The notes under the pieces were generated by a model that was given only the letters and a program-made list of their open reading frames with translations, was not told the origin of the DNA and ran no database searches. This document shows positions 26,281 through 60,351 of a stretch of DNA of 64,000 bases, one piece after another (positions within the stretch are counted from its first letter, which is position 1; every line of letters begins with the position of its first letter). The stretch covers positions 3,169 to 67,168 of the forward strand of contig JAGAQV010000017.1 in assembly GCA_017622555.1 (NCBI GenBank). The letters run 5' to 3'. Source of the DNA: Clostridia bacterium (GTDB taxonomy: Bacteria; Bacillota; Clostridia; Oscillospirales; Acutalibacteraceae). The position numbers and the translations under genes were made by a program.

Positions 26281-26455
26281 AGTGAAGCGTCGGCAAAGCC
26301 GACGTGATGCATTTGCTACGCAAACGTGATGTTATGTGCTAACGCACAAAGTGATGTAATGTGTTCCTTCCCACGCGCCGAAGGCGTGCATCACGAGCAA
26401 AGCCTGCATCACGCACGAAGTGTGCATCACGTTCCGCACACGCGGAACACATCGT
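26281..26455. repeat. Hairpin-spaced short-repeat array 1: GTGATG x3 (direct) then TGCATCACG x3 (inverted)
   Basis: GTGATG at 26304, 26326 and 26351. TGCATCAC at 26387, 26405 and 26423, with a degenerate 4th copy (acacatcg). Spacer mini-hairpins: cgtcggc/gccgacg, tttgc/gcaaa, tgtgc/gcaca, cgcgcc/ggcgtg, gcac/gtgc, gttccgc/gcggaac. Confidence 0.85.
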
Positions 26456-57824: not shown

Positions 57825-59177
57825 ATGCTTAAATCAGAATACCTTAAAAAAGTATACGCCGACGTTGAAGCACGTAACCCCGGCGAAAAGGAATTCCATC
57901 AAACAGTTTATGAAGTTTTATCTTCTATTGAACCTGTTGTTGAATCCAACCCCGAATATCAAAAGTGGGGCATTATTGAAAGAATGGTAGAACCCGAAAG
58001 AATGATTACCTTCCGTGTATCTTGGGTTGATGATAACGGCGCAGTTCACGTAAACCGTGGCTTCCGTGTTCAGTTTAACTCGGCTATCGGTCCTTACAAG
58101 GGCGGTCTTCGTTTCCATCCCTCAGTTAATGCCAGCATTATTAAGTTCTTAGGCTTTGAACAAACCTTCAAGAATAGCCTTACCAGTCTTCCTATGGGCG
58201 GCGGTAAGGGCGGTAGTGACTTTGACCCCCGCGGCCGCAGCGATGGCGAAATTATGCGTTTCTGCCAAAGCTTTATGACCGAGCTTTCAAAGCACATCGG
58301 TGCTGATACCGACGTTCCCGCAGGTGACCTTGGTGTAGGCGCTCGTGAAATCGGTTACCTTTACGGTCAGTATAAGCGCCTTCGTAACGAATTTACAGGC
58401 GTTCTTACAGGTAAGGGTCTTCCCTACGGCGGTTCTCTTATCCGTCCTGAAGCAACCGGCTTCGGCGCTGTTTATTATGTAGATGAAATGCTCAAGTCCT
58501 TTGGCGACACCATTAAGGGCAAGACCTTTGCAGTTTCAGGCTTCGGTAACGTTGCTTGGGGTACTGTTAAGAAGGTTACCGAGCTTGGCGGTAAGGTTGT
58601 TACCATCTCAGGTCCTGACGGCTACGTTTATGACGAAGACGGCATTAACACCGACGAAAAGATTGAATTTATGCTTTCAATGCGTTCTTCTGGTCGTGAC
58701 AAGGTTAAGGATTATGCCGACAAGTTTGGCGTTCCTTACTTTGAAGGTCAGAAGCCTTGGGGCACTAAGGTTGACATTATTATGCCTTGCGCAACTCAGA
58801 ACGAGGTTGACGTCAAGGAAGCTGAACAAATTATTGCTAACGGCGTAAAATATTACGTTGAAGTTTCTAATATGCCCACCACTAACGAAGCAGTTGCTTT
58901 ACTTAAGGAAAACGGTGTTACCGTTGCTCCTTCAAAGGCAGTTAATGCAGGCGGTGTTGCAGTTTCGGGTCTTGAAATGAGCCAGAACTCAATGCGCTAC
59001 AACTGGACCGCTGAAGAAGTTGATGCTAAACTCAAGCAGATTATGAAGAACATCTTCTCGGCATCTCTTAACGCTGCTGAAAAATACGGTATGCCCGGCG
59101 ACTTGGTTGCAGGCGCTAACATTGCAGGCTTTGAAAAGGTTGCAAATGCTATGCTCGCACAAGGCGTTGCATACTAA
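57825..59177 (+). CDS. gdhA: NADP-specific glutamate dehydrogenase
   Basis: KGGLRFHPSV, GGGKGGSDFDP and GFGNVAWG motifs. AAAGGAG RBS. Confidence 0.95.
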   Translation: MLKSEYLKKVYADVEARNPGEKEFHQTVYEVLSSIEPVVESNPEYQKWGIIERMVEPERMITFRVSWVDDNGAVHVNRGFRVQFNSAIGPYKGGLRFHPSVNASIIKFLGFEQTFKNSLTSLPMGGGKGGSDFDPRGRSDGEIMRFCQSFMTELSKHIGADTDVPAGDLGVGAREIGYLYGQYKRLRNEFTGVLTGKGLPYGGSLIRPEATGFGAVYYVDEMLKSFGDTIKGKTFAVSGFGNVAWGTVKKVTELGGKVVTISGPDGYVYDEDGINTDEKIEFMLSMRSSGRDKVKDYADKFGVPYFEGQKPWGTKVDIIMPCATQNEVDVKEAEQIIANGVKYYVEVSNMPTTNEAVALLKENGVTVAPSKAVNAGGVAVSGLEMSQNSMRYNWTAEEVDAKLKQIMKNIFSASLNAAEKYGMPGDLVAGANIAGFEKVANAMLAQGVAY

Positions 59178-59209
59178 TTCGTAATTCATAATTTGTAATG
59201 CGTAATTAA
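59175..59209 (+). repeat. Five tandem heptads TAAT(T/G)(C/T)(G/A), left arm of an inverted heptad array
   Basis: TAATTCG TAATTCA TAATTTG TAATGCG TAATTAA. The first TAA is the gdhA stop codon. Confidence 0.85.
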
Positions 59210-59241
59210 CGCACCCAACGATATGTTGGGTGCGTTTTTTT
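59210..59241 (+). terminator. Intrinsic terminator after gdhA
   Basis: 10-bp stem cgcacccaac/gttgggtgcg, T7. Confidence 0.85.
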
Positions 59242-59340
59242 ACACATAATTTCAAATTTGGTTTTATCTATGCCTTCTCCTGCGGGAGAAGACTTTGGTT
59301 TGTACAATTCCGTCAGCCCGATAAACTATAATTCACACAA

Positions 59341-59374
59341 CAATTCCGCATTACGCATTACGAATTACGCATTA
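59341..59374 (+). repeat. Four tandem heptads CG(C/A)ATTA, right arm (reverse complement of the left-arm heptad)
   Basis: (caattc)CGCATTA CGCATTA CGAATTA CGCATTA. The reverse complement reads TAATGCG TAATTCG TAATGCG TAATGCG. Confidence 0.85.
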
Positions 59375-59382
59375 TTTAAAGT

Positions 59383-59410
59383 TCTATTTTGGACAAGTCG
59401 GTCATATCAT
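59383..59410 (+). promoter_or_regulatory. Candidate sporulation-sigma (sigma-E-like) promoter for spoIIIA
   Basis: TCTATTT, 13 nt, CATATCAT. This is a loose match to the B. subtilis sigma-E pattern (-35 ATA-rich, -10 CATAcAnT), and spoIIIA is sigma-E dependent in model organisms. Confidence 0.25.
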
Positions 59411-59427
59411 CTATTGAGGTGATAATT

Positions 59428-60351
59428 TTGATAACCAACGATGCATTATCAAATGTTTTATATGCCCTGCCACCCAAAATTAAGGGCGCACTTTTTAATC
59501 TTTCCCCCACTGTTCAGCAAAACGTAGCGGAAATTAGGCTTCGCAAAAATTTACCGTTTTCTTTAACCATTCAAGGCGAAACGGTTTTTCTAAAAACTGA
59601 CGGACAAACCTGCTTTTCGCTTTGCAACGGGCTTGTTTACATAACTGAAGACGATATTAACCAATGCTTTCACCTTTTGTGTGATGCATCGGTTTTTGCC
59701 CACGAAAACGAACTGCGTGAAGGCTTTATAATTATGAAAAACGGTTGCAGGGCGGGTGTGTGCGGCAGGCTTTCAGATAACGGCACCATGCAGGACATAA
59801 CTTCAATTAACATTCGAATAAGCCGTGAAATTAAAGGCTGTGCAAATGAGCTTTTATCAAATTACAACGGCGGCGGACTTTTAATTGCAGGTCCACCCGG
59901 AAGTGGTAAAACCACCATACTTCGTGATTTTATTCGCCAGCTTTCAAACGGAACTAAGGGAAAAATTAACCGTATTGCCGTAATTGATTCAAGAAGCGAA
60001 ATTTCTGGCGGTGGCAAGCTTGATTTGGGCCTTGCAACCGATGTTTTACAGGCTGATAACAAGGCAGTCGGCGCGGAAATTGCCCTTCGCACAATGTTTC
60101 CCGATTATATTGCCTTTGATGAAATTGGAAACGTTAACGAGCTTAACGCCGTAAGCCTTTGCTTTTCGTCAGGTGTAAAGGTTATAACCACTGCGCACGT
60201 TGAAAATACCTTTGACCTTAAAAACCGTGAAATTACAAGGCGATTACTTTTAAGCGGTGTTATTGACCAAGTAGTCATATTGCCATCACTTTATGGCGGA
60301 AAGCCACAATTTATAACCACGAAGGAGCTTTATCGTGAGGCTGCTGTTTAA
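59428..60351 (+). CDS. spoIIIAA: Stage III sporulation protein AA (ATPase)
   Basis: Walker A GPPGSGKTT and Walker B-like IAFDEIG. TTG 59428 with a GAGGTG RBS is preferred over the ORF-track TTG at 59389. Confidence 0.88.
   Translation: MITNDALSNVLYALPPKIKGALFNLSPTVQQNVAEIRLRKNLPFSLTIQGETVFLKTDGQTCFSLCNGLVYITEDDINQCFHLLCDASVFAHENELREGFIIMKNGCRAGVCGRLSDNGTMQDITSINIRISREIKGCANELLSNYNGGGLLIAGPPGSGKTTILRDFIRQLSNGTKGKINRIAVIDSRSEISGGGKLDLGLATDVLQADNKAVGAEIALRTMFPDYIAFDEIGNVNELNAVSLCFSSGVKVITTAHVENTFDLKNREITRRLLLSGVIDQVVILPSLYGGKPQFITTKELYREAAV

Follow-up and report, generated by a model that had tools for sequence, protein, structure and literature searches.

The 64-kb window analysed here (the whole stretch of DNA, taken from the genome of a Clostridia bacterium) contains, between the glutamate dehydrogenase gene gdhA and the sporulation operon spoIIIA, two short arrays of tandem heptamers that face each other across the gdhA terminator. 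Our analysis suggests that these arrays are probably the arms of a gene-less inverted repeat made of the word TAATKCG, the full form of which encloses a gene of the PF05635 family, and that pairing of the arms in read-through transcripts is their most likely action. TAATKCG elements are a dispersed intergenic class that occurs in many phyla. As a regulator of spoIIIA the locus is ordinary, and its wider value lies in a candidate protein partner and a five-unit rule: what emerges is a word family common to Clostridia, cyanobacteria, spirochaetes, Planctomycetota and others, anchored at stop codons, in which the word tracks the clade of a pentameric protein.

Inverted heptamer arms between gdhA and spoIIIA

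An earlier note on this DNA had described five heptads running from the gdhA stop codon and four heptads of the reverse complement further downstream, and both sets lie exactly where it had placed them; the terminator, the hairpin at 59274-59291 and the repeats ACAATTCCG and TTTGGTTT that it reported in between are likewise all present. The left arm opens with the TAA stop codon of gdhA (59175-59177), offers TAA stops in all three frames and closes with the TAATTA unit typical of the family, and the units of the right arm are the reverse complement of the left-arm word. Both arrays were recognised by Tandem Repeats Finder (TRF) with a period of 7 (4.7 and 4.6 copies), and together they form a 33-nt inverted repeat that is 85% complementary, with the arms 134 nt apart. 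The sequence TAATKCGTAATKCG, allowing at most one mismatch, occurs five times in the window, every time inside the two arms, as compared with 0.16 occurrences expected from shuffling (five were reached in 0/100 shuffles). The arms can pair, as the earlier note had supposed, into a long hairpin, the 211-nt RNA having a predicted folding energy of -63.1 kcal/mol (z = -7.2). The parts of the locus are:

57825..59177, + strand: gdhA, NADP-specific glutamate dehydrogenase, a 450-aa open reading frame (ORF) (NCBIfam NF006929, 718.9 bits, above cut-off)
59175..59209, + strand: left arm, five TAATKCG-type heptamers, TAATTCG TAATTCA TAATTTG TAATGCG TAATTAA
59208..59241, + strand: intrinsic terminator of gdhA, a 13-bp stem AACGCACCCAAC/GTTGGGTGCGTT at 59208-59236 and then a T-run; innermost part of the loop
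59254..59334, no strand: secondary insert related to a dispersed family of MITEs (transposable elements of the miniature inverted-repeat type), with a degenerate end AATTTGGTTTTATC and an exact end CCCGATAAACTATAATT at 59317-59333
59257 and 59294: repeat TTTGGTTT
59274-59291: mini-hairpin CTTCTCC-TGCG-GGAGAAG
59304 and 59340: direct repeat ACAATTCCG
59340..59374, + strand: right arm, a degenerate unit ACAATTC (59340-59346) and then CGCATTA CGCATTA CGAATTA CGCATTA (59347-59374)
59381..59410, + strand: promoter-like block of spoIIIA, with GTTCTA at 59381-59386, GGACAAG at 59391-59397 and CATA at 59403-59406
59428..60351, + strand: spoIIIAA (TIGR02858), followed by spoIIIAB (TIGR02833) and spoIIIAC (TIGR02848)

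The loop (59210-59339) contains no PF05635 ORF, only the terminator, the mini-hairpin and the MITE fragment, and the locus is therefore classified as a gene-less derivative or relative of the PF05635 cassette rather than a complete one. A search of positions 58900-59600 against Rfam 15 at permissive thresholds returned best scores of 25-26 bits, compared with gathering thresholds of 70-72. Downstream of the right arm, the ribosome-binding site GAGGTGA of spoIIIAA occupies 59416-59422, and alignment with relatives points to the TTG at 59428, positioned 7 nt past GAGGTGA and 53 nt past the right arm, as the most likely start codon.

The neighbourhood of gdhA and spoIIIA was found in five genomes, namely the present one (G000) and G024, G033, G015 and G061 (G numbers denote mostly members of the genus, L numbers individual loci). 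Four of the five (G000, G024, G033, G061) share the same layout, with five left units starting at the stop codon, a terminator, and four right units plus a degenerate one; in G015 both arms are degenerate. The right arm alone is kept in G026, where the contig ends, and in G006, where gdhA has been replaced. The arms persist while the terminator stems between them have diverged (CGCACCCAAC, CCCACCCCGTGG, TCCCCACGGG and others, including those of G033, G061 and G015). SpoIIIAA of the carriers is 76% identical to that of G000 in G024 and ~55% identical in the others, and a SpoIIIAA tree splits the carriers between two clades of an unresolved polytomy, so that two changes are needed. The element probably predates a subclade of the genus, having been present in its common ancestor, and has been retained since; the lack of conservation among relatives that the earlier note named as telling against the element was not observed. 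Free slippage, which the note expected to show as variation in length, is not supported: 5+5 units are fixed in the four species, and the general length distribution of the arrays peaks sharply at five (elsewhere the number of units ranges from 2 to 12, with a mode of 5). What does differ between orthologous arms is the order of the G/T variants. The comparison of unit numbers is one between species, since contigs from other samples of this species break at the arrays. The arms of G033 form a perfect 24-bp stem (z = -10).

The TAATKCG word family and the genes between its arms

A genome-wide count of the word, which the earlier note had suggested as a check, yielded 16 TAATKCG arrays in this genome (1.6 Mb in 31 contigs, 39.7% G+C), out of 129 arrays with period 7. 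Other heptamer families in the genome are TATTCAT (12 arrays) and a TAAAGAA type (~39 arrays, inside MITEs); the degenerate TATTCAT pattern also matches words such as TCTTCAC, and its phyletic test was not used. An exact TAATKCG 18-mer, TAATGCGTAATTCGTAAT, was present in 12/37 genomes of the genus and in 0/24 other genera of the order, and a looser three-unit pattern was present in 20/41 genomes. In a public genome collection the exact 18-mer matched at least 120 contigs from at least 8 phyla. Hosts among the matches listed include Ruminococcus, Acutalibacteraceae, Oscillospiraceae, Selenomonadales, Nostoc, Microcoleus, Chloroflexia, Caldilineaceae, Anaerolineae, Treponema, Bacteroidales, Planctomycetota, Verrucomicrobiota and others. 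A literature search on the repeat sequence found no paper with the TAATKCG word.

The grammar of the arrays was derived from 119 examples, 102 of them from public loci and 17 from this genome. In 51/119 an ORF of at least 120 codons and the same orientation ends at the array, its stop codon lying inside the first units; only 16 of the 119 lie near the start of a divergent gene. Because 7 is not divisible by 3, a run of three units brings the strong stop signal TAAT into each reading frame. Most arrays end in a unit of the form TAATTA[T/A/C/G], and neighbouring arrays are arranged as convergent pairs (12 cases) more often than as divergent (2) or tandem ones (0). The 102 public arrays are most often five units long (57 arrays, compared with 9 of three units, 18 of four, 10 of six, 4 of seven and 3 of nine or more), and the mode stays at 5 after correction for the bias in detection that the 18-mer seed brings. 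Position 5 of the unit is free to be G or T (GTGGT in 13 arrays, TTGTT in 11, GGTGT in 7, and so on). The arrays thus do not copy a single 35-mer, and the number of units is what stays constant; this wide variation in the G/T pattern rules out a single conserved 35-mer, that is, a true terminal inverted repeat (TIR).

The complete form of the element lies between gyrB and gyrA (C18:37888-38316), where five-unit TAATKCG arms enclose a 116-aa ORF (C18:37935-38282) squeezed in after the gyrB stop codon and ahead of the gyrA ribosome-binding site. This ORF matches PF05635, '23S rRNA-intervening sequence protein' (2e-29), and TIGR02436, 'four helix bundle protein'; PF05635 proteins are related to Avd, a protein of diversity-generating retroelements (DGRs). 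The closest solved relative of the 116-aa protein is PDB 2rld (E = 2.4e-36), which has five chains. Orthologous cassettes (at least 69% identity) occupy the gyrB-gyrA site in nine genomes of the genus, with TAATKCG or GAATKCG arms. TAATKCG arms flank a gene of this type in G000, G024, G026, G061, G009, G001 and G004, and arms of GAATKCG, a variant of NAATKCG, do so in G023. Elsewhere the site holds a pseudogene (G014), remnants of the arms (G022, G006) or, in many genomes, an empty spacer of 20-35 nt. From these presences, remnants and empty sites it follows that arms and gene are gained and lost as a unit. PF05635 genes flanked by this word also occur in Ruminococcus flavefaciens FD-1, between asd and dapA, and in a Treponema genome.

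Heptamer arrays accompany PF05635 genes well beyond this clade. We gathered 46 such genes; the genus and related Clostridia supplied 34 of them, and the remaining 12 came from seven genomes in other phyla. An array with period 7 and at least 3.5 units occurred within 220 nt of 35/46, on both sides in 20 cases; a further 8 carried arrays of hairpins and words, and all 12 genes from the other phyla were flanked by heptamer arrays. The copy number given by TRF clusters at 4.4-5.7 irrespective of the word, as seen with ~20 other words beside PF05635 genes. On a maximum-likelihood tree of 45 of the proteins, the 22 word labels require 22 changes, one above the minimum of 21, as compared with a mean of 33.4 changes when labels are shuffled (as low in 0/200 shuffles). 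With support of 94/93, the NAATKCG proteins, among them the one from Treponema, make up a single clade. A gene inherited together with its flanks would yield the same pattern of words and clades, but the members of this clade sit at different insertion sites (gyrB-gyrA, asd-dapA, atpG-atpD and others). Our literature search found no paper linking PF05635 to heptamer arms outside rRNA.

Most TAATKCG arrays are gene-less or single, and PF05635 as their universal cargo was rejected, the gene being found beside the array in only 2/80 public loci fetched. Loop contents are heterogeneous and include hairpins, palindromes resembling repetitive extragenic palindromic (REP) sequences, PF05635 genes and a gene for a small acid-soluble spore protein. 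The last was seen at L067:873-1522 (Clostridia metagenome-assembled genome SUG1651), where a pair of TAATKCG arms identical at 34/35 nt surrounds the complete spore protein gene together with that gene's own terminator and a second heptamer array, GAGTGGA; TAATKCG arms can therefore frame cargo other than PF05635.

Cassettes were also seen within other conserved gene pairs, with the word CAATKCA between atpG and atpD (L170, G064) and TAATKCG between asd and dapA (L193, in R. flavefaciens FD-1). Two further pairs are presumably gmd with a fucose-synthase gene (L195, Treponema) and trpB-trpA (L196, Paludibacteraceae). At L170, L193, L195 and L196 the cassette begins exactly at the upstream stop codon. 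One Caldilineaceae PF05635 cassette carries the word GGGGACT, which resembles a word (STRR1) of the cyanobacterial short tandemly repeated repetitive (STRR) sequences.

The genome has three PF05635 genes, adjoining the words TAATKCG, TATTCAT and GTGATGC (the last as hairpin arrays); the other two thus lack TAATKCG flanks and carry other words. The earlier note had seen a common theme between the present arrays and two others in the window, and this theme proved real: the word of the first of these arrays (26302-26431, GTGATGC/GCATCAC) also precedes a PF05635 gene elsewhere in the genome, and the other two arrays of the window seem tied to the same system. There, a direct-then-inverted array of GTGATGC interleaved with hairpins lies just upstream of C25:4957-5277 (region C25:4957-5540), an arrangement also found at the orthologue in G003. 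In related PF05635 clades the arrays are made of ATATCAC, ACATCAT or ATGAATTG. Such 'Gut-1-like' arrays and the contiguous heptamer arms seem, by their words and neighbours, to belong to one system.

How the arms may act

In the mechanism that we favour, the left arm, lying in the 3' untranslated region of gdhA, would supply the stop codon as well as back-up stops in the three frames. Should the terminator be read through, the right arm would be transcribed and would pair with the left arm in a duplex of ~33 bp, which RNase III would cut, and this cleavage would keep transcripts running on from the strongly expressed gdhA apart from the spoIIIA sporulation promoter, 6 nt past the arm. The element would be selfish or mobile in origin, with insulation as a by-product that was possibly co-opted. 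An RNA clamp forming on read-through, one of the ideas raised in the earlier note, is to our judgement a plausible action and the most plausible one for these arms; we rank it first mainly because it is the only action that has been demonstrated for a homologous element. A gene for RNase III (rnc) is encoded in the genome.

Several observations weigh against this mechanism. The right arm lies behind a strong terminator, and the duplex is possible only in read-through transcripts; the arms of this genome contain 5 mismatches in 33 nt; and the RNA runs for the species, in the form of assembled contigs, contain only 5-9% of the sampled words of the locus. The mean longest perfect complement was 21.7 nt between arms of the same locus vs 19.5 nt between arms of different loci (~2 standard deviations). 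Complementarity within a locus is thus only slightly better, too small a difference to demonstrate selection for pairing. G006 keeps its right arm without a left one, which a pure pairing function leaves unexplained. Finally, no empty site was found among the gdhA-spoIIIA loci of the genus, and we infer insertion there from the repeat family.

Heptamer RNAs as such do exist. Metatranscriptome contigs on the R. flavefaciens locus L076 showed a huge summed depth at the heptamer bins as well as fold-back assembly joints, and no transcript ends. At L076:68-134, 1475-1541 and 1609-1675 in run X22, the summed depth of the heptamer bins exceeded that of the flanks 50-fold to several thousand-fold and reached 39,681. 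It follows from this depth that heptamer RNAs, stemming from many loci or organisms and in some cases very abundant, are present in rumen and gut metatranscriptomes.

An alternative that we consider possible, if unlikely, is that the arms are read by a protein, each five-unit arm binding one pentameric PF05635 protein (encoded here between gyrB and gyrA), with each subunit reading one heptamer of single-stranded RNA or DNA. Gene-less arrays would then be targets in trans, forming a regulon or serving as sites through which the element itself spreads. Such binding would account for the five-unit mode, which holds for TAATKCG, for three word families of this genome and approximately for the ~20 other words noted above, and it agrees with the pentameric nature of the family, seen in the five chains of PDB 2rld and in the homopentameric toroid of S23p (PMC4990558). 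It would also account for the tolerance of either G or T at position 5 while unit number is fixed, and for the congruence of repeat word and protein clade, although plain co-inheritance of gene and flanks explains that congruence equally. Two of the three heptamer families of the genome, TAATKCG and TATTCAT, match words beside its three PF05635 genes, as do the GTGATGC arrays; for the largest family, the TAAAGAA type with its ~39 arrays, the assembly contains no cognate gene. Among the genomes of the genus, NAATKCG arrays were present in 10/10 that have the cognate gene vs 10/31 that lack it, and two of the exceptions are pronounced: G025 has ~30 three-unit NAATKCG matches and no detectable PF05635 gene (the genome is 85% complete), and G033 has 18 matches, no member of the cognate clade and an empty gyrB-gyrA site. 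A heptamer-binding protein has also been postulated in a study of Nostoc (bioRxiv 10.1101/2022.06.06.494920). Against the proposal, S23p is apparently not expressed in Coxiella (PMC4990558).

In its general form, namely that PF05635 pentamers are the sequence-specific partners of bacterial heptamer repeats, with one word per clade and with cassettes seeding gene-less arrays, the idea is a tentative one to which we give rather low odds. If it were true, STRR-type arrays, TAACTGA repeats, 'Gut-1-like' arrays and the ORF-bearing intervening sequences (IVSs) of rRNA would be explained as one system. An old descriptive puzzle can now be tested at the bench with one 116-aa protein and one 35-nt oligonucleotide.

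Somewhat less likely still, in our estimate, is that the arms have no function, having arisen by slippage or template switching behind an AT-rich stop codon or being the relic of a decayed cassette, and that they persist through homogenisation with other copies. Turnover of this kind is suggested by the order of the G/T variants, which differs between orthologous arms and between loci, and the heterogeneous loops, along with the gain, loss and decay of the gyrB-gyrA cassette, point the same way; the literature, too, treats heptameric simple sequence repeats (SSRs) as unexplained and over-represented (PMC4692102, PMC4679880). However, neutral drift accords poorly with the long retention of the arms at gdhA-spoIIIA, with 5+5 units fixed across species whose SpoIIIAA proteins are only ~55% identical and whose intervening terminators have wholly changed. 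Nor does it readily explain why array lengths show a sharp peak instead of a geometric distribution, why the terminal TAATTA unit is conserved, why the arrays are anchored and oriented at stop codons, or why the same word recurs in distant phyla.

The main idea of the earlier note, an operator array for a sporulation regulator acting on the spoIIIA promoter, is highly improbable: although in seven species the right arm lies just upstream of the promoter block, and G006 keeps it despite the replacement of both gdhA and the left arm, the same five-unit arrays occur at 16 unrelated places in this genome that include gyrB-gyrA and the interior of MITEs. Identical arrays were also seen at asd-dapA and upstream of queA, and the word occurs in non-sporulating phyla, with Nostoc, Treponema, Planctomycetota, Bacteroidales and Chloroflexota as examples. 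The block itself (GTTCTA-N4-GGAC(A/T)(A/T)-N6-7-CATA) precedes spoIIIAA in nearly all of the 30 genus loci, and in 23/30 members it does so without any heptamers; in the seven species with the arm, the arm ends 5-7 nt before the block (6 nt in G000). It directly adjoins either the T-run of the upstream terminator or the heptamer arm (loci L011-L040), and no sigma-70-like site was found on the + strand near it. It is likely to be a promoter for a mother-cell sigma factor (sigma-E/K type) with a SpoIIID-like GGACAAG box, an assignment for which we assume the B. subtilis consensus sequences. The heptamer units do not resemble the Spo0A box, which we take to be TGNCGAA, and the SpoIIID-like GGACAAG lies outside the arm; an operator for Spo0A or SpoIIID in the arms was thus rejected.

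Known repeat systems and the mobile elements of the genome

Over-representation of heptamers in intergenic regions has been known since 1990 (STRR) and genome-wide since 2007, with their origin, spread and function unexplained (PMC4692102, PMC4679880). Both heptameric intergenic repeats and ORF-bearing rRNA IVSs are thus already known, and the gdhA-spoIIIA locus is a gene-less member of that class. A close likeness is to the IVSs of 23S rRNA that carry an ORF (Coxiella burnetii, Leptospira, Brucella, Haemophilus), which have inverted arms of ~28-35 nt forming a long stem. In Coxiella the arms pair into a stem of 28 bp, which RNase III cleaves midway, and heptameric repeats (GACAGAT, 3-4 copies, variable in number between strains) lie beside the ORF for S23p, a toroidal homopentamer (PMC4990558). 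Shared with the full TAATKCG form are the PF05635 gene in the loop and the heptamers beside the ORF. Unlike an IVS, the gdhA-spoIIIA copy lies between protein-coding genes, at gdhA-spoIIIAA and not in helix 25 or 45 of 23S rRNA, and it has no ORF, its loop holding a terminator and a MITE fragment; moreover, the whole arm here is built of five heptamers, whereas the IVS stem is an established RNase III substrate and cutting of the present stem is proposed by analogy only. The comparison links rRNA IVSs to a wider class of cassettes inside conserved operons (gyrBA, atpGD, asd-dapA).

Among heptameric SSRs, the cyanobacterial STRRs (CCCCAGT and others), Nostoc GGGGAYT and Xanthomonas GGGAATC (Rehm et al. 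2015, PMC4692102) share with TAATKCG the tandem 7-nt units, the intergenic location and the many copies. In Xanthomonas, GGGAATC forms 70-75 convergent inverted pairs, a type preserved between species (PMC4692102). TAATKCG differs in being AT-rich (and hence unable to form a G-quadruplex) and stop-codon-bearing, in being fixed at about five units, and in its hosts, which comprise Clostridia and many phyla; a link to PF05635 is not described in the STRR and SSR papers. The TAACTGA direct repeats of marine Beggiatoaceae, Cyanobacteria and Bacteroidetes (MacGregor 2015, PMC4679880) likewise provide stop codons in three frames, come in sets of 2-6 copies and are patchily distributed, a pattern across phyla that suggested horizontal transfer by no known vehicle; they were proposed to be the site of a post-transcriptional regulator (PMC4679880). 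Those repeats lie mostly just upstream of start codons, and a single inverted pair was reported among them, whereas TAATKCG arrays start at stop codons and often form inverted pairs.

The element also resembles MITEs, REP sequences and bacterial interspersed mosaic elements in being short, non-coding, dispersed, intergenic and hairpin-forming. In contrast to these, its copies share only the repeat word and not the interior, no transposase gene or gene for a REP-associated tyrosine transposase is linked to the gdhA-spoIIIA copy, and there is no target-site duplication at this site, no direct duplication being found beside the arms (GCATAC/TAATTCG...CGCATTA/TTTAAAG). A further parallel is the omega repressor of plasmid pSM19035, a dimeric ribbon-helix-helix (RHH) protein whose operators consist of 7-10 heptads of the type WATCACW. 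Here, too, contiguous 7-bp units occur in direct and inverted orientation near promoters and are read cooperatively by a small oligomer; the word is different, the operators are plasmid-borne and longer (7-10 units), and the partner is a dimeric RHH protein, a class for which no search was made here.

The MITE-related insert in the loop has its own, later history. Its 23-nt end within 59254-59334 is identical to other copies in the genome, it is absent from the spacers of relatives (G024 and others), and in three other samples of the species (runs X3, X6, X7) contig depth is 0 over 59286-59333. The strain represented by G000 gained this insert of ~80 bp in the loop later than the arms. The ends of the MITE-like family, AATTGGGGTTTATCG...CGATAAACTATAATT, were found at 22 and 29 places in the genome vs ~0.14 expected, and several of the TAATKCG arrays of this genome lie inside elements bounded by these TIRs.

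MITE-like copies were seen, for example, at C7:68677-68798, C27:7341-7508 and C31:58018-58185. One subtype of ~170 nt has inverted arms of TAAAGAA-type heptamers around two GC mini-hairpins, and a second of ~122 nt has a TAATKCG array inside. Palindromes of the type GTAGGGG...CCCCTAC, which are REP-like, are frequent in loops beside TAATKCG arrays (L047, L099, and in G000 at C9:65220-65330 and C13:25785-25890). Many contigs of the assembly terminate ~120-140 nt into MITE-like copies.

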